From contig DOMK01000013.1 in assembly GCA_003510435.1 (NCBI GenBank), forward strand, positions 12,135 to 76,134: a stretch of DNA of 64,000 nt, read 5' to 3'. Below are positions 1,625-60,990 of the stretch, piece by piece (the stretch's first letter is position 1; each line of letters begins with the position of its first letter). This DNA comes from Candidatus Magasanikiibacteriota bacterium. Its GTDB lineage: Bacteria > Patescibacteriota > Patescibacteriia > Magasanikbacterales > UBA922. Position numbers and translations under genes: made by a program. Below the pieces are notes generated by a model, which saw only the letters and a list, made by a program, of their open reading frames with translations, was not told the DNA's origin and searched no databases.

Positions 1625-4174
1625 ATGAATCCTGAACAACTTTTGGAACGCTTTTCTACCCATCTCCGTACTGTGGTCGCCAAAGCTATGGCGATGGCCA
1701 CTTCCCTATCACATGACAAGGTCACCCCAGCTCATTTGTTTGTGGTTTTGTTAGAAGAAAAAGGCTCGATTGCCAATGAAATTTTGAGTAAGCTCAATAT
1801 TAATCCTGATTTTATTTATAAAATTTTAGATAATAAGCCAGAACTAGTAAACCAAAATATAAAAATCCAAACCGCCACTCTGCCAGAATTAAATTTGATG
1901 AGTAAAAAAATCTTAGAGAAATCCATGCTCCTAGCTTATGAGAGAAACCATACCCATATTGGCACCGAGCATTTACTCTTGGGTATGATCTATAGTACAG
2001 ACAAAGATATAAAAGATATTTTGCATAATTTTAAAATTAATATTGCTGATATTGAAGAAGAGATAGAAAATATTCTCCAGAGCACATCCAAATTCCCAGA
2101 TATTGATGACGTCTCCAATATGATGGATCAATTAGAAGGCTTAGTTGGTGGCGACAATTCTTCGGCCATGCCTCTACCCCCTGCTTCGATGAATCAACCA
2201 GAACAAAATCAAATTAGTAGACCAAAAATGAAAAGACCTAGTGTGACGGCTTTGGATCTTTTTACTAATAATCTAACTAATCCGAGTAATCAAAAAAATA
2301 TTGATCCAGTCATTGGTAGAGAAAAAGAAATTGAACGCGTAATAAATATTTTGGCCAGACGAACAAAAAATAATCCAGTGTTGATTGGCGAACCAGGTGT
2401 AGGTAAAACTGCCATTGTAGAAGGCTTGGCCAGAAGAATTACCGAAGGTGATGTACCAGATGTTTTAAAACGCAAAAAAATTCTTTCTCTTGATCTCACT
2501 TTAATGCTTGCTGGCACTATTTACCGTGGTGAATTTGAAGCTAGACTCAAACAAGTAATTGATGAAGTGACCAAATCACCAGATTGTATCCTTTTTATTG
2601 ATGAACTCCACAATATTATTGGCGCTGGCTCTAGTCAAGGTGCTATGGATGCGGCTAATATTTTGAAACCCGCCCTAGCTCGTGGTAGCCTACGCTGTAT
2701 TGGCGCGACCACGATTGATGAATACAAAAAACATGTTAGCCACGACCCTGCTCTAGAAAGACGTTTTCAAGCTATCAATGTAGAAGAACCAAGTAAAGAG
2801 GAAACTGAACAAATTTTACAAGGCATCAAAAAATATTATGAAAATTTTCATAATGTAAAAATTACTGATGAAGCTATTACTACAGCTGTAGAATTGAGTG
2901 TTAAATATATTCATGATAATTTCTTGCCTGATAAAGCGATTGATCTCTTGGATGAAGCCTCGGCCGCCATAAAAGTAAAAAATAAATTATCCAATCATGA
3001 AATCAAACGACAAAAATTATTAGATGAAATTGATCATTATAACATTCAAAAAGAAGAGAGTATTAGAACCGAAAAATTTGATGACGCCAGTGTATGGAAA
3101 AAACGCCTGGAGGGAGTTAATAAAAAATTACAATCTTTGGAAAAAATTATTAGTAAAGCCAAACAGCCACTCCGAAAAAAAGTGATGGGTGCTGATATAG
3201 CCAAAATTTTGGAAAACAAACTTAATATCCAAGCTAATATTTTATTACAAAATGAATGGGATGAACTAGAGACTTTACCAAACAGATTAAAACAAAATAT
3301 TATTGGTCAAGACGAAGCTATAGAAAAGATCGTAAAATCTTTGAAACAATCATATTTGGGACTAAAGGACAATAAAAAACCTCTGGCATCATTTGCTTTC
3401 ATTGGCCCGAGTGGAGTAGGTAAAACTGAAATGGCCAAAATTTTGGCCAAAGAACTTTATCATGATGACAAAGCTCTAATAAAACTAGACATGAGTGAAT
3501 TTTCTGAACAACATAGTACTTCTAAATTACTTGGTTCGCCGGCTGGCTATATTGGTCATAAAGAACGTAACCATTTTACTGAGGAAATTAGAAAACGACC
3601 TTATTGTGTGGTTTTGTTTGACGAGGTTGATAAAGCCCATGCTGATGTAACCAAACTCTTGTTACAAATTTTGGACGAAGGCGAACTGACTGACAGTGCA
3701 GGCAAAAAAACTCATTTCCACCATGCTCTAATTATTCTCACCACAAATTTAGGCGCAGAACTATTCAAAACCACTGGCATTGGTTTTGGTAAAGTTGAAG
3801 CTAATAGTAAAGATCGTGATAAATCAATTGTAAATAAACTAAAAGAAGACCTCTCTTCAGCTCTAATCAACCGTTTGGACAATGTAATTATTTTTAATCC
3901 TCTGACTAAAGCTGATATAAAAAATATTGTGGCTAAAAATTTTAAATTAATCAATGAAAAATTACAAACCAATAATAAATTATCTATCAAAGCTACTAAC
4001 CAAATATTATTAGATCTAAGTAAAGATAGTTTTAATGTAGAAGAAGGTGCTAGACAAGTAGAAAGAATTTTGCAGGATATTATCCAAGAAGCCGTCATTG
4101 AAATCCTAAAGAAAAAACAAAATAAACAAAATTATTCTCTAGTGAAAAAAGCTGGGAAATATAGTCTAGTATGA
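1625..4174 (+). CDS. clpC: ATP-dependent Clp protease ATP-binding subunit, ClpC type
   Basis: 849 aa. Clp N-domain, two AAA+ modules with Walker A GEPGVGKT and GPSGVGKT, and a short middle region with a UVR-like segment ([12 protein letters not shown]) typical of ClpC rather than ClpB. Confidence 0.85.
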
Positions 4175-9535: not shown

Positions 9536-12136
9536 CTACTCCAAATGTACTCCATCTTCCCAATCCCTCACTTTACTTACAAGTGAAGGATTTTTTTTGA
9601 AGTCAATTCCTCGTGCCAAATCACGTGATAATTTTATCAAATCCATATCCTGCATGGTGGCGAGTTTAAAAGGTGGTAGACCACTCTGGCTTGTGCCATA
9701 AACTTCACCCGGGCCACGAGTTTGGAGATCATACTCAGCAATTTTAAAACCATCAGTATTTTGAGAAAAAAATTGCAATCGTGCCAAAGATTTTTCATTG
9801 TCAGTGTCAGTAAATAAAAAACAATATGATTGATGTAAAGCTCTACCCACCCGACCACGGAATTGATGGAGCTGGGCCAAGCCAAACCTGTCTGCGCCTT
9901 CTATCATCATCACGACAGCATTAGGAATATTTACTCCCACTTCTACGACTGATGTGGAAACTAGTATATCTATTTTTCCACTCGCAAAATCAGCCATAGT
10001 GTTTTCTTTTTCATTTGGCTTTAATTTGCCATGTAAATAACCAACACGTAAATCTTTAAATATCTCCTCAGATAATTTTTTATATTCACTCATTACACTT
10101 TTTTTATCTAAGGAGTAAGGAATAAGGAGTAAGGAATTATTATCAACAAAATCATCATCACTTTTTCCTTTTTCCTTTTTCCTTTTTCCTTCATCAATCA
10201 ACGGACATATCACAAACACCTGTCTCCCCTGTTTAACTTGTGAACGAATAAAATCATAGGCCTTGTTTCTATTTTCACTATCTACCACTCTAGTATCAAT
10301 TGCTTTTCTACCCACTGGCATTTCATTAATAATAGATAAATCCAAATCACCATACAAAGTAAGAGCAAAGGATCTGGGAATCGGGGTCGCAGTCATAGAC
10401 AACAAGTGAGGCCTCATTGCTGACTGACGCAGACTAGACGCAGACTCATTATTACCACGGGCAATATCATAAACAATTCTTTGAATATCCACGCTCTCGT
10501 GAGAAAAATTTATTAACAAAGCCAACTTATACAGTGATCCTTTTAAATATGTCCAAACCTGTCTATTTTCTCTACTACCAACAAACGGAAGGGCTTTTAA
10601 TTCAATGATAATTTTATCTTCAACCACAAAATCTGGACGATAAATTCCTATTTTTTTATTTTCATATTTTATATCTAATACTTTTTCTTTTTCAAATTTT
10701 ATTCCTTCTTTTTTAAATTCCTCTTCCAATGCATTTTGATAAATTACTTCTTTATGTCCTAAACCTAAATTCTTTTTAACATTAAAAATACATCCTCTTA
10801 TTTTGTAAGTCAAATCTTTATATAAAAATCCACTTTTACTTTCCTTCTCCTGTTGTTCTTCCTCTTCTGCGTCGTCTGCGTAAGTCTGCGTAAGTCTGCG
10901 TCGTTGTTCTACTCCGAATCGATGTTGTTCATCTATAATTACTAAACCTAAATTTTTAAACTGTACTTTTTCTGATAATAGAGCGTGGGTTCCAATAATC
11001 AAGTTTATTTGCCCAGTTTTAATTTGTTTAAGTAAATCTTTTTTAATCAAAATACTAGAAGATCGGTGATCACTGATCACTGATTGAGAACGTGTCAACA
11101 GCGCTATTTTAACTTTATCTTCCAACAGCTTTGTCAGCGAATCAAAATGTTGCACGGCCAATATCTCGGTCGGCGCCATTATCACTGCTTGATAATTATT
11201 CAAAACTGTATTATAAAGCGCCATCGCTGCCACGACAGTTTTTCCACTTCCCACATCACCTTCTAACAATCGATTCATAGGTTCATTTTTTTCCAAATCA
11301 CGCAAAATATCCCAAGCCGACACTTTTTGGGCTTTGGTAAGCTGAAAAGGTAAAGAACTAACAAACTCTTTTATTTTTTCTTGCTGAAATTTTATTTCCC
11401 AAGCTTTTGATCGTTTCAAAGATTGACGAATCATTTCCGCGCGTAATTGTAAAATAAATAGTTCTCCAAATTTCAAACGCTTTTTTGCTTGATTTAAGTC
11501 TATTTCATCTATTGGAAAATGGATACCACGCACCGCTTCGGCCAGATAAATCAAATCTGCTTTTTCTAAAATTTCATCTGGTATCCATTCTTTTAGTAAA
11601 TCATGAGTCAAATAAATTATTTGACTAACTAAAAACCTTAATTGTTTATTAGTAACTCCAGTCGTGAGATGATAAATTGGGACAATCCTGGCAGTATGGG
11701 TAGTGTTTTTTTCTCCCAAAGCTTTTTGTTTGGTTTCTTTTTCATAAGACGGCGATGCCATTTGTTTGCCTAGTTTTCCAATTGATAATTTGCCTGATAG
11801 ATAAACTGTATCACCAGGTTTAAAATTCCGAGTAATAAAAGGCTGGCCAAACCAAACAATTTTTAATTTTCCAGTTTCATCATAAACAATCGCCTCTGTC
11901 ATAATTGTTCGTCTTTTAAAAATCCGCCGATTGGAAATAATCTCTATTTTCGCTTTAATTGTCACTTCTTCCCCTACTTCCAAATCAGCAATATTCTTGG
12001 TACTACTATAATCTTGATAGCGAAAAGGTAAATAAAACAACAAATCCTGAATAGTATTTATACCAAGATTTTTTAAATGCCTTTCCATCTTTTTGGCAAT
12101 ATGGTTGATTTGTCCAATAAGTGTGTCTAATTGCAT
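9536..12136 (-). CDS. recG: ATP-dependent DNA helicase RecG carrying an in-frame PD-(D/E)XK (GxxExxY-type) domain insertion
   Basis: 866 aa. Walker A GSGKT, DEQH box, MTATPIPR motif III and an N-terminal wedge region. About 165 extra aa lie between DEQH and motif III. Confidence 0.85.
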   Translation of the reverse strand: MQLDTLIGQINHIAKKMERHLKNLGINTIQDLLFYLPFRYQDYSSTKNIADLEVGEEVTIKAKIEIISNRRIFKRRTIMTEAIVYDETGKLKIVWFGQPFITRNFKPGDTVYLSGKLSIGKLGKQMASPSYEKETKQKALGEKNTTHTARIVPIYHLTTGVTNKQLRFLVSQIIYLTHDLLKEWIPDEILEKADLIYLAEAVRGIHFPIDEIDLNQAKKRLKFGELFILQLRAEMIRQSLKRSKAWEIKFQQEKIKEFVSSLPFQLTKAQKVSAWDILRDLEKNEPMNRLLEGDVGSGKTVVAAMALYNTVLNNYQAVIMAPTEILAVQHFDSLTKLLEDKVKIALLTRSQSVISDHRSSSILIKKDLLKQIKTGQINLIIGTHALLSEKVQFKNLGLVIIDEQHRFGVEQRRRLTQTYADDAEEEEQQEKESKSGFLYKDLTYKIRGCIFNVKKNLGLGHKEVIYQNALEEEFKKEGIKFEKEKVLDIKYENKKIGIYRPDFVVEDKIIIELKALPFVGSRENRQVWTYLKGSLYKLALLINFSHESVDIQRIVYDIARGNNESASSLRQSAMRPHLLSMTATPIPRSFALTLYGDLDLSIINEMPVGRKAIDTRVVDSENRNKAYDFIRSQVKQGRQVFVICPLIDEGKRKKEKGKSDDDFVDNNSLLLIPYSLDKKSVMSEYKKLSEEIFKDLRVGYLHGKLKPNEKENTMADFASGKIDILVSTSVVEVGVNIPNAVVMMIEGADRFGLAQLHQFRGRVGRALHQSYCFLFTDTDNEKSLARLQFFSQNTDGFKIAEYDLQTRGPGEVYGTSQSGLPPFKLATMQDMDLIKLSRDLARGIDFKKNPSLVSKVRDWEDGVHLE

Positions 12137-16200: not shown

Positions 16201-16245
16201 AATAATACTAATAATAAATACGAATTATACTGATGCTATACAAAT

Positions 16246-16647
16246 ATGAATAATACTGGAGAAAAATTAATTTATCCGGATTTATCTTATAAAATAAATG
16301 GAATCCTCTTTGCCACCCATAATGAATTAGGCCCCTATGCCAGAGAAAAACAAATTGGTGATGTAATAGAAAAATTATTAAAAGAACAAGAAATACCCTA
16401 CCTCAGAGAATGTCAAATTGGCAATAGCGGAAATGTATTGGACTTTATTATAGATAATAAAATTATTCTTGAACTAAAATCAAAACGTTTTATAATAAGA
16501 GCAGATTATGAACAAACACAAAGGTATCTGCAAGCCACCCAGCTTAAACTTGCGATCTTAGTCAATTTTAGGACACAATATCTTAAACCAATCAGGATAG
16601 TAAAAATAGATACTCAATTTAAAGAAAAATTCATAAAAAAATATTAG
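16246..16647 (+). CDS. PD-(D/E)XK nuclease-like protein of the GxxExxY type; paralogue of the recG insert
   Basis: 133 aa with a D..ELK core (DFIIDNKIILELK). It aligns along its length with the domain inserted in RecG (for example YKINGILF~YKIRGCIF and LAILVNF~LALLINF). It is bracketed by inverted repeats. Confidence 0.55.
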   Translation: MNNTGEKLIYPDLSYKINGILFATHNELGPYAREKQIGDVIEKLLKEQEIPYLRECQIGNSGNVLDFIIDNKIILELKSKRFIIRADYEQTQRYLQATQLKLAILVNFRTQYLKPIRIVKIDTQFKEKFIKKY

Positions 16648-16686
16648 TATAGCATCAGTATTATTAGTATAAATTAGTATATTAGT
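16648..16686. repeat. 39-bp A/T-rich repeat (tatagcatcagtattattagtat...attagt), copy 1, directly upstream of pth
   Basis: Near-identical to 17340-17380. Its core ctgatgctatac also occurs inverted at 16226-16241, upstream of the GxxExxY gene. Confidence 0.7.
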
Positions 16687-17226: not shown

Positions 17227-17339
17227 CATATATCACTTATCACATAACAAATTTAAAATCAAAATCCGCTGGTTAGACGGATTTTATTTTTTCCTTACAT
17301 GCTTTCTAAAAACCAATTTTTATGCTATTATAATATTCG

Positions 17340-17380
17340 TATAGCATCAGTATTATTAGTATTAATTCGTATATTAGCAT
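17340..17380. repeat. copy 2 of the 39-41 bp repeat, directly upstream of dprA
   Basis: gtatagcatcagtattattagtattaattcgtatattagcat matches 16648-16686 with a few substitutions. Confidence 0.7.
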
Positions 17381-18464: not shown

Positions 18465-18471
18465 CACTTGT

Positions 18472-18536
18472 CATTCCGAGCGAAACCGATTCGCATCGGC
18501 TGACGAGGTCGAAGATACCCGTAAGGGTGAATCCCT
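18472..18536. repeat. GC-rich short structured element (cattccgag ... acgaggtcgaagata ... gtgaatcc) with an internal hairpin ccgattcgcatcgg
   Basis: Sits just after the dprA stop. Shares blocks with the element after the secY start (about 50598-50641). GC-rich against an AT-rich background. Confidence 0.55.
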
Positions 18537-18639
18537 TTCTTAAATTTACAATTCTAATTACTAATTTAAAAATATAAATCAATTCTATGATTTAATTATA
18601 ATTATTTAATCTTCTAATCATTAAATCCTAAATATTTTT

Positions 18640-25019: not shown

Positions 25020-25127
25020 CATTGATTTCACTGATTAATAAATGATTACACAGAAAAACTCCTCAACAAATGTTGAGGAGTTTTTTAATCTGCGAAATCA
25101 TTTTTCAAAATCAGTGAAATCAATGTT
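25020..25127. repeat. TIR-bounded spacer element (gcattgatttcactgatt ... aatcagtgaaatcaatg), family copy A
   Basis: The termini are inverted repeats of each other. The same termini recur at 36381-36470, 41489-41532, 48480-48552, 52760-52844, 54564-54661, 55518-55626 and 58459-58565. Confidence 0.65.
25054..25086. terminator. bidirectional intrinsic terminator between convergent genes
   Basis: aaaaa-ctcctcaac-aaat-gttgaggag-tttttt: a 9-bp stem with A- and T-runs on either side. It lies at the centre of the 25020-25127 repeat element. Confidence 0.65.
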
Positions 25128-30837: not shown

Positions 30838-30847
30838 ATTGTTAATT

Positions 30848-30894
30848 CATTCCGACCCGCCGATGAGGCGAGGGAGGAATCTTTCCCACCTCGG
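30848..30894. repeat. GC-rich element cattccgacccgccgatgaggcgagggaggaatc in the scpA-scpB spacer
   Basis: About 40 bp, near-identical in reverse complement to 50705-50745 (cattccgaacccgccgatgaggtgaggtgaggaatc). Confidence 0.6.
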
Positions 30895-30912
30895 ATTATT
30901 TAATAAAAAAAA

Positions 30913-34586: not shown

Positions 34587-36380
34587 TTATTCCACAATTT
34601 TTATATGCAAATCTTTCAACTGTTTTTCATCTACTTCACTCGGACTGCCCACCATTGGTTCTTCCGCTTTTTGATTTTTTGGGAACGGTACAACAGAACG
34701 AATATTCTTTTCTCCCAAAAGCAACATCACCAATCTTTCAATCCCAGGAGCAAAACCACAATGTGGCGGTGCCCCAAATTCAAATGCATCAATCATGTGT
34801 CCAAACTTTTTATTTACTTGTTCTTTTGTATAACCAGCAATCGCAAATGCTTTGTACATAATTTCTGGATCCATATTACGCACGGCACCAGACGAAAGTT
34901 CAAGACCATTGGCAATAATATCATATTGATCAGCCAAAATATCTAATGGATCTTTGGTATTCAAGGCTTCTAGTCCTCCCTGTGGCATAGAAAATGGATT
35001 GTGACCAAAATCTATTCCACCTTTCTTGTCACTTGCCCCGAGAGAGTCCGTAGACTCTTTTTCGGGGCTCCATTCAAACATAGGAAAATCTACAATCCAC
35101 GCCCAAGCAATCAAATTTGGATCTTTTAAATTCAATTTATCTCCAGCCAAATCTCTCACCCCGCCCAAAGCTAGACAAGATACACGCCAGTTATCCGCCG
35201 AGAAAAATAATATACTATTTTGTTTTAATGATACTAATTGTTCTAATTGTTTAAGTTGTTCCTCACTGAAAAATTTCGCCACCCCACCATCAAATTTTCC
35301 GTCTAAATATTTCATCCAAGCTAAACCTTTAGCGCCAGCTCGTTTGGCTTTGTCAGTAAATTCTTCATCAATTTCTTTACGAGTAAAATTCTCTCCACCA
35401 GGCACAGCCAAAACTCTAATAAATTCGGCATCTTTAAAAACTTTAAAATCAGTCTGTTTTGCCCATTCGCTTACATTGGCAATTTTTAAATCAAAACGCA
35501 AATCTGGCCGATCTGATCCGTAAGTCTCCATGACTTCTTTAAAAGGAATTCTCGGAAATGGTTTTTGCCAAACTTTTTTGCCAGTTAATTTTTCAGTTAA
35601 TTCAATAAATAATGGTTCCATTAAATTAAAAAATTCTTCACGTTCCAAAAAGCTAGTTTCACAATCCAGCTGATAAAATTCACCTGGTGACCGGTCGGCT
35701 CGTGGGTCTTCATCGCGCATACAAGCCGCAATTTGATAGTATCTATCAAAACCAGCCACCATTAACAACTGTTTGTATTGTTGTGGGGCTTGAGGAAGAG
35801 CATAAAATTTCCCTGGGTGTATTCTGCTTGGGATTAAAAAATCTCTAGCGCCTTCTGGGGAAGATACAGTTAAAATTGGTGTCGCAATATCAATAAAACC
35901 GCGCGAATCCATATACTCACGAATCTGTTTTACCATTTTGGCGCGAAACAAAATATTATTTTTTAATTTTTCCCGACGCAATTCCAAATAACGATATTTC
36001 AAACGCAATTCTTCATCCTCTTCTTCTTTTCTCGCATCAAAAATTTCAAATGGCAAAGTCTTGGCTTTACTAATTATCTTTACCTCACTAGCAATCAATT
36101 CAATTTCTCCCGTGGCTAATTCTTTATTAACATTTTCAGACTTTCTATTTTCAACTTTCCCTTTTACACTTATTACATATTCGTACTTTAAACCTTCAGC
36201 TACATCAAAATTACTCATCTGGTCAGGATTAAAAACTACTTGGGTAATACCATAGCGATCACGCAAATCAACAAACATAAGACCACCCATTTTTCGATGT
36301 TTGTGTACCCAACCAGAGAGCATTACTTCCTCTCCAGCTTGTTTTTTGGTTAATTCTCCACAAGTGTGTGTACGATACAT
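34587..36380 (-). CDS. aspS: aspartate--tRNA ligase (bacterial type)
   Basis: About 597 aa from MYRTHTCGEL. N-terminal OB anticodon-binding domain, class II motifs and a GAD insertion domain. The tabulated ORF has a 17-codon upstream extension. Confidence 0.9.
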   Translation of the reverse strand: MYRTHTCGELTKKQAGEEVMLSGWVHKHRKMGGLMFVDLRDRYGITQVVFNPDQMSNFDVAEGLKYEYVISVKGKVENRKSENVNKELATGEIELIASEVKIISKAKTLPFEIFDARKEEEDEELRLKYRYLELRREKLKNNILFRAKMVKQIREYMDSRGFIDIATPILTVSSPEGARDFLIPSRIHPGKFYALPQAPQQYKQLLMVAGFDRYYQIAACMRDEDPRADRSPGEFYQLDCETSFLEREEFFNLMEPLFIELTEKLTGKKVWQKPFPRIPFKEVMETYGSDRPDLRFDLKIANVSEWAKQTDFKVFKDAEFIRVLAVPGGENFTRKEIDEEFTDKAKRAGAKGLAWMKYLDGKFDGGVAKFFSEEQLKQLEQLVSLKQNSILFFSADNWRVSCLALGGVRDLAGDKLNLKDPNLIAWAWIVDFPMFEWSPEKESTDSLGASDKKGGIDFGHNPFSMPQGGLEALNTKDPLDILADQYDIIANGLELSSGAVRNMDPEIMYKAFAIAGYTKEQVNKKFGHMIDAFEFGAPPHCGFAPGIERLVMLLLGEKNIRSVVPFPKNQKAEEPMVGSPSEVDEKQLKDLHIKIVE

Positions 36381-36561
36381 ATAGCATTGATTTAAACAGA
36401 TTAAAACTGATTCAGACAAAAAATTTACCACAAAATCTCTGTGTAATTCTGTCTAAAACAATGCTTATATCTTAGCAAAAACTAACCGATTTGGCAAGCA
36501 AAAAACACACCAATTTTGATGTGCTTTTGAGTCGTCCCGAAGGCGCAGACGACCTTCGGGT

Positions 36562-41488: not shown

Positions 41489-41799
41489 ATAAATTACATC
41501 AATTTTAATCTGTTTAAATCTGTCTAAATCAATGCCAAAATTAAAGACTCTCCCGTCGGGGAGAGTCGTTTGTAGTGTTAGTCTGTTTTAGGACACTAAA
41601 AAACTCGCCCGCCGGGTTGGGGTGTATTATTATTAGTATTACTTGTCTGCCGTAGAGGCAGATTTGTTCGAAACATTTGTCTCATATGTTTAAATAATAC
41701 AACTACTTTTGAATAACGTCAAATAACTTATCCACACCGCACTAGAACCTCCTTACAGTCGGTTCGGTGCAGTGCAAGCACCTTTAAACAAAAGCACCA

Positions 41800-46951: not shown

Positions 46952-47191
46952 ATGGTTAATATTTTACCCTAAAATAAGGAAAAAAGCAACCAAAAACTCC
47001 CTATTCAAGGGAGTTTTTATTTTTTTAAATTTTGTAAATCTTTTACTTCTTTTTCTAAATTTTTTATTAATTTTTTCTGTTCATCTGGTTCTAAATCTGG
47101 AAAAAGCTTAAGCCAAAAATTGAGTTCTGTTTCATTCTCGCCTAATTGAATAAGTTTTTTAACTAAATCACTAATTGATAATGACATATTA

Positions 47192-47815
47192 TTATGCTAA
47201 TTCTTCTTTTCCACTTAATTTTCTATATGGTTTAGCCACTATTAACTTTTCATAATTAACTGAAATAAAATCACCAACAGTTTTCAATATACTAGACAGC
47301 TTCGGCATTTTATCTTTTAAAACTGCAGAGACTTTGTCTAAAGCCATAGGTAAAGCGTCAAAATTGGCCATATAATAAGAAACTGTTCCTCCAACACCAG
47401 CGGCTGCATATTCACCAACATAAGCAGCTGCATAAGCAAATATTGCAGCTGTAGTTGCTACCATGTAGTTAAATTGTTCAGTTACTTCCAAATCTCTACC
47501 ACCTTCTTTTTCAGTGATTGTTCCTTTGGCTAAATTATACTCACCATAAAACGGCGCATTATTTATAAGCTTTAAAAATAAAGGGGCTTTTACCAATTGC
47601 ATAATGCGATCTAAAAAAATCTTTCTAAGTAACCTTAATCTTTCTCCTCTTGCTTTCTCTTTAACCTTTTCCACTGTTTTTGGTCCTTCAGATAATTCCA
47701 AATTACCCAACTCTGTACTAGTAGATTCGACAATTAAATCATCGGCTGTATCATCTACTGGATTTTCTTTTTCCCAAGGTGTCATAAATTGTCTCATGTC
47801 TGATTCTGATCTCAT
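47192..47815 (-). CDS. hypothetical protein between map and adk
   Basis: 207 aa with an acidic N-terminus and an Ala/Gly/Tyr-rich hydrophobic stretch. No motif recognised. Confidence 0.35.
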   Translation of the reverse strand: MRSESDMRQFMTPWEKENPVDDTADDLIVESTSTELGNLELSEGPKTVEKVKEKARGERLRLLRKIFLDRIMQLVKAPLFLKLINNAPFYGEYNLAKGTITEKEGGRDLEVTEQFNYMVATTAAIFAYAAAYVGEYAAAGVGGTVSYYMANFDALPMALDKVSAVLKDKMPKLSSILKTVGDFISVNYEKLIVAKPYRKLSGKEELA

Positions 47816-47819
47816 AGAT

Positions 47820-48479
47820 TTATTTCAAAATTTTTTCAATTTCCTTATCAACTTTATCAATATCAATCTCACCATCTACAGTTTTTAAGACTCCCAAATC
47901 TTGGTAATAATCCAAAATTGGTCTAATGGCTGTATTCCCTTGTTCAATAATTCTCTTTTTGGCTGACTCGGGATTATCATCTTCACGAATTATTAATTTA
48001 CCCCTACATTCTGGACAATCAAACTTGGCTTCATTTTCTAGAGAATAAGGCAATATATATCCACAATCTGGACAAATTTTACGTCGAGTCAAACGATTAA
48101 AACTAGTCTTGTCAGATAAAGCAATTTCAATTACCAAAATTTCATTTTCTAAACGCTTGTTAGTAAAATATTCTTGGTATTTTTTGGCTTGCTCTACATT
48201 GCGAATCGCCCCATCTAACAAAACCCCTCTACCTGAATCTAAATTTTTATCCATAGCCGAAAAAGCTAGCTTGTATATCAAATCATCAGCTACTAGTTTA
48301 CCAGCTTTCATGTCATCTAATTTTTGTTTATCTGTTGGGTCAGCATTTGGATCTTTATCCAAAGCGCGCAATAAATCTCCAGTGGAAATATGCGCCAAAT
48401 CATATCGACCAACTAATTTTCTTGCTTGGGTGCCCTTACCACTCCCGGGGACGCCCATTAATATTATTACTTTTTTCAT
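47820..48479 (-). CDS. adk: adenylate kinase with a Zn-lid
   Basis: 219 aa. P-loop GVPGSGKGTQ and lid cysteines CPDCG...CPEC. Confidence 0.9.
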   Translation of the reverse strand: MKKVIILMGVPGSGKGTQARKLVGRYDLAHISTGDLLRALDKDPNADPTDKQKLDDMKAGKLVADDLIYKLAFSAMDKNLDSGRGVLLDGAIRNVEQAKKYQEYFTNKRLENEILVIEIALSDKTSFNRLTRRKICPDCGYILPYSLENEAKFDCPECRGKLIIREDDNPESAKKRIIEQGNTAIRPILDYYQDLGVLKTVDGEIDIDKVDKEIEKILK

Positions 48480-48552
48480 AGCATTGATTAAAACTGATTT
48501 AGACTGATTTAAACGATTAAATTTCTGTTTTAATCTGTCTAAATCAATGCTT
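48480..48552. repeat. TIR-bounded spacer element, copy D (gcattgattaaaactgatttagactgattt ... ctgtctaaatcaatgc)
   Basis: Near-identical to 52760-52844 over about 70 bp. Confidence 0.7.
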
Positions 48553-48834
48553 TTACAATTGATTATAATAATTTTTAAACACTGTCATTAATCCTTCTTT
48601 ATCATCATGACTTATTTTTCCACTAACACGTAAATGATGCAACACATCACGAATCTTTTGCAAAGAAATCATATGCTGACCATCACGAGCAGCCAAAATA
48701 GCCAATTCTACGGTTTGTTCATCATGATAATTTAAAGAAGCTACTTTATGTTGTGAAACCAAATGTCTGACAGCTTCACTATGTAGATGATGTCCTGTGG
48801 TAGAATATTTTGTACTAGAGCCAAATATTGACAT
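48553..48834 (-). CDS. hypothetical His-rich small protein
   Basis: 93 aa with many His residues (HHLHSE, HHLRV). No motif recognised. Confidence 0.35.
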   Translation of the reverse strand: MSIFGSSTKYSTTGHHLHSEAVRHLVSQHKVASLNYHDEQTVELAILAARDGQHMISLQKIRDVLHHLRVSGKISHDDKEGLMTVFKNYYNQL

Positions 48835-48892: not shown

Positions 48893-48921
48893 TTGACAAA
48901 TATATATATGTGTGATAAAAT
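48893..48921 (+). promoter_or_regulatory. promoter TTGACA-N17-TAAAAT (mini-cassette 2)
   Basis: ttgaca aatatatatatgtgtga taaaat. A 5'UTR hairpin tgtgggt...acccaca follows, then RBS GGAGGG at 48976-48981 and the ATG at 48988. Confidence 0.55.
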
Positions 48922-48987
48922 AATTTGTCTTGTGGGTTACTTACACCCACAGATAGCATACAACCGATCTTACCTGGAGGGAAGAAA

Positions 48988-49176
48988 ATGCAAATTCGTT
49001 TTCTAGACATCGTTGCCTTGGTCGTTCAGGTACTAGTGGTCCTAGGTGGTTTGTTACTCACAATACTCAGTGAGACCGTGTGGGATCTGTCGGTTGGAAT
49101 CGCGACAACCTACAGCGGAGTACGGGCGATAAAAGGCATCTTCAAAGAAATGAGGACGCCTCCACCAGCCGATTAA
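48988..49176 (+). CDS. GC-rich 62-aa hydrophobic peptide (mini-cassette 2)
   Basis: MQIRFLDIVALVVQVLVVLGGLLLTILSETVWDLSVGIATTYSGVRAIKGIFKEMRTPPPAD. One long hydrophobic span. GC-rich codons. Confidence 0.5.
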   Translation: MQIRFLDIVALVVQVLVVLGGLLLTILSETVWDLSVGIATTYSGVRAIKGIFKEMRTPPPAD

Positions 49177-49256
49177 GTGAGGGGGCAGTCAGTTCCAAGC
49201 CCCCCAGAGCAATAAAACATTTATTTTTCTGGGGGACTGATTGCCTTAATAATAAA

Positions 49257-49286
49257 ACCAGCTGTTTTTAAACGGCTGGTTTTTTT
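49257..49286 (+). terminator. intrinsic terminator accagc-N12-gctggt plus a T7 run
   Basis: Downstream of the cassette-2 ORF. Preceded by G/C-tract hairpins (gggggc...gccccc). Confidence 0.6.
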
Positions 49287-49319
49287 GTTTTGTGTTATGT
49301 GTTTTGTGACTCGTGTCGA

Positions 49320-50591: not shown

Positions 50592-50595
50592 ATCA

Positions 50596-50745
50596 TCGTT
50601 TCATTCCGAGTTTACGAGGTCGAAGATACTCTTGAGTGAATCTTTTTTACCCCGCGACTCTTTAAAACCATTGGCTAATAATTTGAAAAAGTTTATTTTA
50701 GAAAAGATTCCTCACCTCACCTCATCGGCGGGTTCGGAATGAACT
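50596..50745. repeat. two GC-rich short elements in the rplO-secY spacer
   Basis: About 50598-50641: cattccgagtttacgaggtcgaagatactcttgagtgaatc, related to 18472-18536. About 50705-50745: gattcctcacctcacctcatcggcgggttcggaatgaac, the reverse complement of 30848-30894. Coordinates are within about 3 nt. Confidence 0.6.
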
Positions 50746-52210: not shown

Positions 52211-52759
52211 TTAACTAGCAGATTTAGCCGCTGTCTTACCTTCTTTACGGCGGATAACTTCTTCAAGATATTTAATTCCTTTACCTTTGTAAGGTTCTGG
52301 TTTTCTAATTTTTCTTACTTCGGCTGCTACATTACCCAACAATTCTTTATCAGAACTTTCCAATGTAATTAGATTCTTTTCTACCCCAGCTGTCACCGTG
52401 TTTGGAATTTTGTAAATTACTGAATGGGAAAAACCAACTTCCAGTTTCAAATCTTTACCTTGCATGGCCACTTTATAACCCACACCATTAATTTCTAATT
52501 GTTTTTTAAATCCAGTTGTTACACCAGTCACCATATTTTGGATGTGAGAAGAAAAAGTTCCCCACAAAGAACGTTCCGATTTTTCATCTTCATTTTTAAC
52601 TGATACAGAAATAACGTTGTCCTCAATCTTAACACTCACTTTATCATTAAGCTTGCGAGTCAAAGTTCCTTTTGGACCTTTTACCAAAATTTCATCTGCT
52701 TTTAGATCAACGGTTACTCCAGCTGGAATTTGAATTGTTCTTTTGCCTATACGTGACAT
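52211..52759 (-). CDS. rplF: 50S ribosomal protein L6
   Basis: 182 aa starting MSRIGKRTIQIPAGV. Confidence 0.9.
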   Translation of the reverse strand: MSRIGKRTIQIPAGVTVDLKADEILVKGPKGTLTRKLNDKVSVKIEDNVISVSVKNEDEKSERSLWGTFSSHIQNMVTGVTTGFKKQLEINGVGYKVAMQGKDLKLEVGFSHSVIYKIPNTVTAGVEKNLITLESSDKELLGNVAAEVRKIRKPEPYKGKGIKYLEEVIRRKEGKTAAKSAS

Positions 52760-52844
52760 AGCATTGATTAAAACTGATTTAGACTGATTTCAGATAATTA
52801 AACATCTGTTTTAATCTGTCTAAATCAATGTTTATTTAGTTTAT
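52760..52844. repeat. TIR-bounded spacer element, copy E, between rpsH and rplF
   Basis: gcattgattaaaactgatttagactgatttcagataattaaacatctgttttaatctgtctaaatcaatg. Confidence 0.7.
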
Positions 52845-53237
52845 TTAATATACTGAACAAATAATTTCTCCACCAATACCCAATTTACGAGCTTGCTTAT
52901 TAGTCATAAAACCTTGTGAAGTGGATATAACCGCCACACCAAAGTCATTCAAAATTCTCGGCATTTCCTCGGATTTGCGATAAATACGATAACCTGGCTT
53001 ACTCACCCGAACCAAAGATCTAATTTGTGGTTCTCGGTCATTGTATAAAAGCTCAATGGTTAATTTCTTTACTGGCTTTTCTTCCACAATTTCAACTTTG
53101 CCCACATATTTTTCTTGAGCCAAAATATCAGCAATCGCTTTTTTTACCTTTGAAAAAGGTAACACAATATTTGCCCGTCTTGATAATTGGGCATTGCGTA
53201 TGCGAGTTAACATGTCTGCGATAGGATCGGTCATCAT
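52845..53237 (-). CDS. rpsH: 30S ribosomal protein S8
   Basis: 130 aa starting MMTDPIADMLTRIRNA. Confidence 0.9.
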   Translation of the reverse strand: MMTDPIADMLTRIRNAQLSRRANIVLPFSKVKKAIADILAQEKYVGKVEIVEEKPVKKLTIELLYNDREPQIRSLVRVSKPGYRIYRKSEEMPRILNDFGVAVISTSQGFMTNKQARKLGIGGEIICSVY

Positions 53238-53392
53238 AGTTTTTGAGTAATTTTATTTATTGTACATTTATTTACTTACTAAAGTTTTACCACTTCTATA
53301 TTATAATTATTTTTCACCTTACCACCTCACCACTTAACCACATATACAAATTTGTGATTGAGTGATTAAGTGATAAAGTGGTTAAGTGATTT

Positions 53393-54162: not shown

Positions 54163-54242
54163 ATTTTATTCACTTTTTAGCACTTTAGCACTTTAGCACT
54201 TAAAACATTTTTTTGCTTAGGTGCTTGAGTGTTCAAGTGTTT

Positions 54243-54563: not shown

Positions 54564-54661
54564 AACATTGATTTCACTGATTTATTATATTTGATTACAC
54601 TGATTTGGAGGATGTCTTTTATATCTGTGAAATCCATTTCCAAATCTGTGCAATCAATGTT
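54564..54661. repeat. TIR-bounded spacer element, copy F, between rplN and rplX
   Basis: acattgatttcactgattt ... tgtgcaatcaatgtttta. Confidence 0.65.
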
Positions 54662-60437: not shown

Positions 60438-60990
60438 ATCTATTTTGGTAACAAAAAACTAGAAGTGATATCTCAAAACAAGATTTAAAATATCGCTTCT
60501 AGCCTTTATAAAAAAATGATTATATTGGCTTGTAAATTATAATTTTTAATATTCACCTCACTGTACACCATTTGCCTTCTTGCAGATGTTTTCTTTCTTG
60601 AAAGTTCACGGAAAATTATTTTACAATTATAATCCGTAACCCTTAGTAAAATCCGTAATCATAGATCTTATCTGCTCGAATTTTTGGTGTTGTTCCTAAT
60701 ACTTTAGGAAGTGGCCATATTTTACCTCAAAACAAAAACAATGTCAAGGGGTTTTATACAACCGTTATCCACATGTAAATATGATTTACAAGATTCAAAC
60801 CCCTAACCAAATTTTATGACAAAACCATTGTCAAATTGTCTCATTGACACATTGTTATTGCTACACATATATAACAACTTTTCAAAAAAACAATGGCAAC
60901 AATTTAACAATGTGACAATAATATTTAAAAGGCATTAACCAAATATCTACACAAAATATTTTTTTATCTCAAAAAACCTACTTTTTTACC

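Follow-up and report, generated by a model that had tools for sequence, protein, structure and literature searches.

The described elements closest in kind to those reported here are bacterial MITEs, REP/REPIN sequences and the pneumococcal BOX repeats. MITEs, which include Correia/CREE of Neisseria, ERIC/IRU of enterobacteria, Nezha and Chunjie, are flanked by direct repeats (PMC3184786). REP sequences are G+C-rich and carry a short palindrome with a conserved 5' tetranucleotide, and they and the two-halved REPINs are mobilised by RAYT tyrosine transposases (PMC3337134). BOX of Streptococcus pneumoniae has boxA and boxC ends and 45-nt boxB modules in the middle (PMC3049150). The GATT elements of Ca. 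Magasanikbacteria (Patescibacteria/CPR) described below are lineage-specific, small and non-coding, and we judge it probable, at roughly 0.7, that they constitute a dispersed, insertion-polymorphic family of palindromic repeats. A literature search yielded nothing on such repeats in Patescibacteria. Their internally periodic arms, combined with a stop-to-start placement in a host lacking Shine-Dalgarno (SD) motifs, appear to be undescribed so far.

The initial annotation of the window, the whole 64,000-nucleotide stretch that was analysed, singled out a near-identical pair of sequences with inverted-repeat ends, one upstream of adk and the other between rpsH and rplF. Both read as quoted, and Pfam places them beside the genes named. 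The pair aligns with identical residues in 65 of 72 columns (91% identity over 78 nt by BLAST), and both begin with the same 30 nt and end with the same 25 nt, a match found 0 times in dinucleotide shuffles of the window. On the forward strand the adk-side copy, 48481-48551, reads AGCATTGATTAAAACTGATTTAGACTGATTTAAACGATTAAATTTCTGTTTTAATCTGTCTAAATCAATGCT, and its near-copy occupies 52761-52830. The termini are inverted as described (GCATTGATT and AATCAATGC) and reach 10 nt as AGCATTGATT and AATCAATGCT. The second copy had been drawn across 52760-52844; a near-copy is indeed present, but the element proper covers only 52760-52831, and the rest is an A-rich stretch of ∼14 nt (52832-52844) between the element and the rpsH stop. 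Nor are there only two copies: a census of the window with nhmmer profiles gives seven full copies plus a half copy. Elements and the genes flanking the original pair are listed here.

25020-25125, no strand assigned: palindromic copy between the convergent genes relA/spoT (plus strand) and parB (minus strand)
36383-36465, minus strand: subfamily A copy immediately upstream of aspS (nhmmer 60.7 bits)
41500-41535, minus strand: half element with a single arm, CATTGATT-TAGACAGATT-TAAACAGATT, between a terminator and tRNA-Asn
47820-48479, minus strand: adk, directly downstream of the first reported element (PF00406, E 1e-30)
48480-48552, minus strand: GATT-unit hairpin of subfamily A, the first reported element, occupying the entire spacer between the 93-aa ORF and adk (sequence, TRF, nhmmer, folding)
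48553-48834, minus strand: 93-aa ORF (ORF93) with no Pfam family, upstream of the first reported element
52211-52759, minus strand: rplF (L6), downstream of the second reported element (Pfam)
52760-52831, minus strand: GATT-unit hairpin of subfamily A, the second reported element, in the rpsH-rplF spacer 52760-52844 (sequence, TRF, nhmmer, folding)
52845-53237, minus strand: rpsH (S8), upstream of the second reported element (Pfam)
54564-54661, minus strand: subfamily B copy occupying the rplN (L14)-rplX (L24) spacer, common to the relative L199
55518-55626, minus strand: subfamily B copy occupying the rplP (L16)-rpmC (L29) spacer, a site that is empty in L199
58459-58565, minus strand: subfamily B copy occupying the rplW (L23)-rplB (L2) spacer, common to L199 (gene names taken from the orthologous locus)

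The elements are 68-110 nt long, contain no ORF and share a common architecture. Terminal inverted repeats of at least 10 nt, A[A/G]CATTGATT ... AATCAATG[T/C]T, bound two arms and a loop of variable sequence. Each arm comprises three to four tandem units of 9-11 nt, nnAC[A/T]GATT with the core AC[A/T]GATT, and the opposite arm is the inverse. TRF independently finds arrays of period 9-11 in both arms (in the adk-side copy, period-10 arrays at 48485-48518 and 48524-48545), and unit number varies between arms and between copies. Two subfamilies can be distinguished. Subfamily A, to which both reported copies belong, has termini GCATTGATT and units TAGAC/AAAAC/TAAAC-[A/T]GATT; subfamily B has termini AACATTGATT and units nCAC[A/T]GATT. 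The degenerate pattern CATTGATT-N2-3-AC-N-GATT-N5-8-GATT matches the window eight times, with 0 matches expected by chance. These matches, together with the empty sites in a relative and the homologous copies elsewhere that are described below, bear out the earlier reading of a dispersed element as opposed to local divergence. The termini are not confined to the pair, recurring in the further copies of the window and in other Patescibacteria.

The host is an uncultured groundwater bacterium. Its population is represented in independent groundwater assemblies (ENA, JGI and Logan) that match over the elements at 99.9-100% identity, which therefore are no assembly artefact; the window itself is 100% identical to NODE_108 of ENA ERZ5996431. 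Close relatives, taken from a protein search and contig look-ups, include the Ca. Magasanikiibacteriota MAG GCA_049287025.1, which is 97% identical to the window in L6. The relative L199 differs from the window by 2.7% at the amino-acid level, by 17% at third positions and by 21% at four-fold sites, and the coding DNA flanking filled and empty sites is almost identical between the two. Their spacers compare as follows.

S8-L6: 85 nt with the element in the window; 12 nt in L199
L16-L29: 109 nt with the element in the window; 4 nt, TGAT, in L199
L14-L24: element in the window; same element in L199
L23-L2: element in the window; same element in L199
ORF93-adk: element in the window; an 822-aa ORF without a known family in L199

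Copies come and go fast enough to differ between genomes whose ribosomal proteins are 97% identical. Since its split from L199, the lineage of the window has received five hairpin insertions within ∼12 kb: three gains of GATT type (S8-L6, L16-L29 and ORF93-adk) and two gains of another unit type (L24-L5 and S14-S8). Because the close relative lacks the two reported copies at their sites, these are recent insertions and not conserved regulatory signals. Across eight Magasanikbacteria operons, the default spacer is 1-25 nt, and hairpin elements of 80-130 nt occupy differing spacers in different genomes; outgroups identify the short state as ancestral. The initial annotation had held that such spacers are normally short, and in relatives this is what is seen, with 9-12 nt at S8-L6 in two element-free genomes and 6 nt between the ORF93 homologue and adk in another. 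The 93-aa ORF itself is kept upstream of adk in relatives and has a promoter-like site of its own at 48899-48871.

Copies at different sites are homologous over their full length. In more distant relatives, B-type copies at S19-L22 and S8-L6 of L235, and one at L6-L18 of L236, are full-length homologues of the L16-L29, L23-L2 and L14-L24 copies of the window. B-type copies from five spacers in three genomes align end to end, including the loop ACACTGAATACGAATTG, with a mean column identity of 75%. The family has thus been dispersed by copying between sites.

A pattern scan of one genome per species (185,579 species) gives at least 117 loci among those listed, of which ∼19 are from Magasanikbacteria or other Patescibacteria, a strong enrichment. 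The context of the listed matches also differs, with a terminus abutting a gene boundary in 19 of 30 from Patescibacteria versus 10 of 101 from other taxa. Convincing two-arm copies outside CPR are found in Mucilaginibacter lappiensis ANJLi2 and in a Kapaibacterium, a Bacteroidetes and an Omnitrophota MAG. Related genomes often carry single-arm arrays that adjoin a start or stop codon, and one locus (L080) has tandem expansions of the GATT unit. Matches listed from a metagenome scan with L6 are all at most 57% identical, almost all of them without GATT arrays. A scan of viral contigs gives 26 matches that look like chance occurrences inside coding sequence, except for one long tandem array of the 9-nt unit (L210), and BLAST of a B-type copy against phage and plasmid collections gives no match.

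Operon-internal copies fill the stop-to-start gap, with the upstream stop 0-4 nt away, and once 14, and the downstream start 2-11 nt away. Over all copies the 3' terminus lies 0-11 nt before the ATG, mostly 2-4, and the same holds for single-arm arrays; at S8-L6 the distance to the rplF ATG is 2 nt, and at aspS, whose ATG is at 36380, it is 4 nt. Two promoter-proximal copies (L067, upstream of parA, and L059) have their left end 3 nt after a TATAAT box and their 3' end near the ATG. The copy at 25020-25125 begins right after a TAG stop and ends 2 nt from the stop of the opposing gene. Outward flanks on both sides tend to TAA or ATAA, the left often being a stop codon and the right a TTAT that precedes the ATG. 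Orientation on the sense strand is also biased, with CAGATT/AATCAG in 11 independent copies versus 2. The comparison at L16-L29 fits an insertion just after the stop (TAA^TGAT-ATG becoming TAA-[element]-TGT-ATG). At S8-L6 the residual spacer is wholly different between filled and empty alleles, so that event was not a clean cut-and-paste.

It had been proposed that aligning the copies might define a target-site duplication. None is present at any of the eight window copies, nor at four filled-versus-empty sites, and a TA duplication of the IS630/mariner type is absent by eye on all flanks. The window ORFs and 10 kb of adjoining sequence (∼74 kb of the 103-kb contig) contain no gene for a transposase, Y1/RAYT, integrase or Nop-domain protein, and the L240 genes have no Y1_Tnp match either. 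Among 28 loci there is no composite element in which GATT arms 0.2-4 kb apart enclose ORFs. These negative results count against the mobile-repeat reading. In that reading the elements would be non-autonomous and MITE- or REP-like, copied by an activity encoded elsewhere that leaves no target-site duplication.

Folding, which had been suggested as a check, predicts hairpins of modest stability, with MFE values of -17 to -26 kcal/mol and z scores of -2 to -5.6 relative to dinucleotide shuffles. The adk copy has an MFE of -19.6 kcal/mol and a z score of -4.4, and the S8-L6 copy a z score of -4.7. The copy between the convergent genes, which scores about equally on both strands with nhmmer, holds a canonical terminator hairpin within its loop, and its MFE is -54.5 kcal/mol (z -13). 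Sense and antisense folding of nineteen hairpins reveals no asymmetry (Wilcoxon p 0.41). Pair covariation is likewise absent, with a double change in one of 12 predicted pairs and a covariation term of -0.05 among copies that are too similar to inform; the units are conserved as sequence and not through compensatory change. Promoter and terminator scans find nothing above chance in the elements, and no U-tract follows the stem. Rfam matches at the gathering threshold are to tRNAs only, and between 48300 and 58700 none overlaps a GATT element at E<=1. Given the lack of covariation, the sequence-conserved units and the equal folding of both strands, the hairpin may be of importance at the DNA level, or a protein, either a transposase or a host factor, may bind the units. 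Single-arm arrays cannot act as hairpins.

Once established, copies have fared differently. The L14-L24 copy shared with L199 has one difference in 98 nt, compared with 17% divergence at third positions (P about 2e-7) and 21% at four-fold sites, which argues for some constraint once a copy is fixed. The L23-L2 copy, also common to both, has changed faster and differs at about 10 of 107 nt (P 0.018).

The geometry of the sense strand suggests how such insertions might be tolerated. In the adk-side copy it reads UAA-A-[stem]-U-AUG, so that the predicted stem leaves 1 nt after the stop codon and 1 nt before the start codon. In a model consistent with this arrangement, the operon transcript would include the element, folded as an imperfect hairpin, and the base of this hairpin would hold the stop and start codons side by side. 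The downstream cistron would then be translated either through re-initiation or once the ribosome arriving from upstream has opened the stem; the two are established mechanisms of coupling (PMC12548453). An SD-like motif precedes just one of 59 genes of this host, T occupies position -1 in 54 of the 59, and several promoters abut start codons. With essentially no SD motifs and many promoter-adjacent starts, downstream translation could still proceed. Only insertions of stop-start geometry would survive in essential operons, and the bridging of stop and start would explain both that survival and the later conservation of established copies. That the hairpin bridges stop and start in support of translational coupling is a possibility we advance tentatively.

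Several other readings account for part of these observations. The units of the CACAGATT arrays could be bound by a protein of the host, as an operator, iteron or nucleoid-associated array spaced roughly one helical turn apart; the elements would be maintained on that account, with the hairpin incidental. The 9-11 nt period in both arms, units kept as sequence, single-arm arrays, equally good folding of both strands, strong purifying selection on one copy and tandem expansions elsewhere (L080, L210) all agree with such a role. However, a regulon would not be expected to shift its positions between close relatives or to have the same site colonised by unrelated unit families, copies lie within constitutive ribosomal operons and not at promoters, and no candidate binding protein was found. 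Binding by a transposase is compatible with this reading too and would return it to the mobile-repeat explanation. We regard a host binding site as unlikely. A different proposal is that the hairpins grew in place, as palindromic minisatellites, through replication slippage and template switching, and were not copied from site to site. It draws on the at least eight sequence-unrelated families that share tandem 7-11-nt units in inverted arms, on the differences in unit number between arms and copies, on the L080 expansions, and on insertion boundaries that are unclean and lack target-site duplications. Against it stand the full-length homology across sites and genomes, loops and termini included, and the 90% identity of the reported pair at unrelated loci, which independent local origin cannot yield. 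Growth in place is improbable as the source of the family, and slippage probably alters unit number after insertion.

The intercistronic location in the S10/spc operons, the stable predicted hairpins, the strongly conserved L14-L24 copy and the orientation bias relative to the gene would also suit a site-specific cis-regulatory RNA of ribosomal-protein operons, such as a leader, attenuator or processing site of benefit to the host. The same sites are nevertheless empty in outgroups as well as in the 97%-identical relative, and the element also lies beside adk, aspS, tRNA-Asn and parA and in a spacer where genes converge. Rfam gives no match, at gathering threshold or at E<=1, there is no covariation and no U-tract after the stem, and terminator-like sites do not exceed chance; a dedicated regulatory RNA is highly unlikely. 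Finally, short conserved motifs alternating with more variable stretches recall the guide-RNA arrays of TIGR-Tas or CRISPR systems, which CPR bacteria and their phages are known to carry, and TIGR-Tas has been found in parasitic bacteria (PMC12045711). TIGR arrays consist of alternating 8-12-nt repeats (edge and loop) and 9-nt spacers in a 36-nt unit, usually 5-15 units, adjacent to a Nop-domain tas gene (PMC12045711). In contrast, the GATT motif is 4-7 nt long and recurs every 9-11 nt, its "variable" parts come in a small number of recurring types, every locus forms one palindrome, and no Nop-domain or Cas gene is found in the window. We give a guide array almost no credence. Considered together, these data favour a mobile repeat family copied between sites.

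The GATT elements are not alone in their design. In three genomes, each time in a different spacer, the same hairpin plan is built from the unrelated unit TAGTTC, and elsewhere from further unrelated unit types, namely CACTYAAN/AGTGCTAA, TACGAAA, CCAGATA, GTAGATT, CATTGTT and TATTAGTAT. It is conceivable, if rather doubtful, that GATT elements are one family of undescribed mobile "junction cassettes" in SD-less CPR bacteria, which would be written into stop-start or promoter-start junctions without target-site duplication and then become functional in re-initiation or mRNA processing of the downstream gene.

We note separately that a PD-(D/E)XK gene (PDDEXK_3, "GxxExxY") at 16246-16647 sits exactly in the loop of one hairpin of this design. 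It could be a lead to the mobilising enzyme, or a coincidence.

CPR genomes are thought to be small and streamlined, yet even the most conserved operons of a Magasanikbacterium are colonised by several hairpin-repeat families. Each surviving operon-internal insertion sets a hairpin between a stop and a start codon, and the set forms a natural experiment on translation of downstream cistrons without SD. As presence/absence markers, the elements can serve strain tracking in groundwater metagenomes. They are also a source of annotation error, in that many spacer ORFs of this region start with TTG or GTG and traverse an element; the aspS ORF is over-extended in this way. A cultured Mucilaginibacter isolate has a similar element (L100), and the question is therefore experimentally tractable.

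Several known sites and structures were compared with these hairpins and set aside. Integron attC sites are imperfect palindromes bounded by RYYYAAC ... GTTRRRY and lie next to cassettes and an integrase; GATT termini are CATTGATT and AATCAATG, their neighbours are core ribosomal genes, and the window ORFs include no integrase. The DnaA box has the consensus TGTGnATAA, and GTGAAACA is the parS half-site. For DnaA boxes, parS half-sites, Fur and pho boxes and the ends of phage Mu there is no full-site match, and the locations would be unexpected; the same applies to CIRCE, which the AGTGCTAA hairpin resembles. At the gathering threshold, no covariance model of a known Rfam RNA, ribosomal-protein leaders included, matches a GATT element.

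With respect to position, the MIRUs of Mycobacterium tuberculosis, reportedly described by Supply et al. in 1997, offer a parallel. They are said to be repeats of 40-100 bp in the intercistronic spacers of operons, with the flanking stop and start signals kept in a register compatible with translational coupling, and reportedly are direct tandem repeats with small ORFs overlapping the flanking stop and start codons. GATT elements are likewise intercistronic; unlike MIRUs, they are palindromic and have no conserved mini-ORF, an ATG-xxx-TGA overlap being present only at adk and L24. Hairpin-dependent coupling under the RNA-unfolding model, as in phage f1 VII/IX and E. coli rpmI-rplT, also employs a hairpin that lies a few nucleotides before the start and can be opened by the ribosome (PMC12548453). 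Those hairpins are fixed, gene-specific structures, whereas GATT hairpins are dispersed and their function is a proposal drawn from geometry.

Like MITEs, GATT elements are below 200 bp, AT-rich and non-coding, have terminal inverted repeats and a long predicted stem-loop, and occur as many dispersed intergenic copies that would be co-transcribed with their neighbours; in both cases the argument for mobility comes from filled versus empty orthologous sites (PMC3184786). They depart from MITEs in having no target-site duplication where MITEs have flanking direct repeats, and no IS with matching termini was found in the ∼74 kb examined. Their arms are periodic tandem units instead of unique sequence, and their insertion sites are stop-start junctions, the 3' end keeping close to the ATG. 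With REP and REPIN sequences they share an extragenic hairpin of ∼70-110 nt made of two inverted halves, no expected target-site duplication, sites both within operons and between convergent genes, singleton halves as remnants, and sequence classes that coexist in one genome (PMC3337134). In contrast to REP, they are not G+C-rich and have no short palindrome with a conserved 5' tetranucleotide, and in contrast to REPINs, each half comprises tandem 10-nt units and not individual REP palindromes, and the single-copy, IS200-like RAYT/Y1 gene that REPINs flank was not found in ∼74 kb. BOX belongs to a different phylum and is unrelated in sequence, and its modules lie between its ends, whereas GATT modules are ∼10 nt and form the arms. 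For both, the mobilising enzyme is uncertain, and both are modular repeats with variable numbers of tandem modules and a predicted, co-transcribed RNA stem-loop (PMC3049150).

Besides the GATT elements, palindromic repeats of 68–110 nt, other dispersed repeat families occupy the spacers of these genomes. The second family has arms built from TAGTTC/GAACTA units and occurs in three different Magasanikbacteria genomes, at the ribosomal-protein gene spacers L23>L2, S8>L6 and L6>L18. Another intergenic repeat type, richer in G+C, has TCATTCCGA...GGAATGA-like arms and is present both in the window and in L199, the locus from a close relative whose ribosomal protein L6 is 97% identical.

L201:4678–4783, TAGTTC/GAACTA family copy
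L239:9782–9886, TAGTTC/GAACTA family copy
L238:10547–10647, TAGTTC/GAACTA family copy
Window 50592–50743, G+C-richer repeat
Window 30838–30912, G+C-richer repeat
Window 18465–18540, G+C-richer repeat
L199, adk>map and RuvX>MgtE spacers, G+C-richer repeat

The S8>L6 spacer is a possible insertion hot spot, because four different element types fill it in four genomes. Two more hairpins, at window positions 54163–54242 (L24>L5) and 53238–53392 (S14>S8), are composed of 8-nt units, with CACTYAAN in one arm and AGTGCTAA or TAAGTGGT in the opposite arm. Both are missing from the 97%-identical relative, where these spacers measure 10 and 60 nt, respectively. The sense strand of the S14>S8 hairpin, with five G-U pairs, is far more stable than the antisense strand (−37.8 versus −22.4 kcal/mol), whereas for the L24>L5 hairpin the antisense strand is the more stable one. 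The hairpins in the L15>SecY spacer of the window (152 nt) are wholly unlike those in the same spacer of the close relative (113 nt, with CCAGATA units).

Units of the GATT elements also occur in simple tandem form. The viral contig IMGVR_UViG_3300021511_000252 (L210) carries a long head-to-tail array of a 9-nt GATT-element unit (TCACTGATT / TCATTGATT) at positions 3447–3814, and on a Patescibacteria contig the TAGACTGATT unit lies in a 22-nt tandem expansion 3′ of a stop codon (L080:5702–5800). The GATT-element unit is therefore able to multiply into a simple tandem array. An A-type GATT element is also found in a metagenome-assembled genome labeled “uncultured Gammaproteobacteria” (GCA_964603435.1, CAZRUM01; loci L201 and L059). 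This genome has a Magasanikbacteria-type operon, in which L6 is 75% identical to that of the window and L30 is absent, and its label is probably a taxonomic mis-assignment.

Gene content near adk is in flux, as seen by comparing window positions 47017–47815 with L199:13826–16294. The adk-map interval of the window holds two family-less ORFs, of 207 and 56 amino acids, that are missing from L199. The latter instead has an 822-amino acid family-less ORF between ORF93, a 93-amino acid ORF upstream of adk, and adk itself, exactly at the site of the window's GATT element. Between SecY and ORF93, a plus-strand stretch of ∼350 nt (within 48893–49304) is bracketed by a promoter-like site (48893–48921, plus strand; 11/12, with a TG extension) and a strong intrinsic-terminator-like hairpin (49254–49283). 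Its Rfam matches, Qrr and AbsR28, are weak and sub-threshold. This stretch could possibly encode a small RNA or a small ORF, antisense to the operon.

The S10>L3 spacer (60438–60990, minus strand) spans 553 nt and is 85% conserved with the close relative. It contains a hairpin of CATTGTT units and an internal promoter-like TTGACA...TAAAAT. The perfect DnaA-box sequence TTATCCACA (plus strand) occurs at 60765 and 41728, the copy in the spacer lying directly upstream of the promoter-like −35 box, and relatives' S10>L3 spacers show a similar motif. A further position recorded with this spacer, alongside 41728, is 62973.

Shine-Dalgarno sequences are essentially absent from the genome: GGAG, GAGG or AGGA falls at −20 to −5 in one of all 59 ATG-start genes of the window (example regions lie upstream of 13365, 20779, 46951 and 12136). 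The context of the start codons is very strong: 54 of the 59 genes have T at −1. Because several sigma-70-like −10 boxes end 6–9 nt 5′ of the ATG, the sequence suggests leaderless or near-leaderless mRNAs in the host.

PD-(D/E)XK nuclease sequences (PF13366, PDDEXK_3) appear in two settings. RecG helicase (9536–12136, minus strand) carries the domain in frame at amino acids 440–553, as an insertion that separates the DEAD domain from Helicase_C. A separate PDDEXK_3 gene sits exactly between two 39-nt inverted repeats, which are 85% complementary and composed of TATTAGTAT-like units; a third arm copy, 92% identical, lies directly 5′ of the dprA start codon.

Window 16209–16679, PDDEXK_3 gene (16246–16647) with inverted repeats (16209–16247 and 16641–16679)
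Window 17333–17367, third arm copy

This gene, together with its inverted repeats, may represent a form of the periodic hairpins that looks autonomous.
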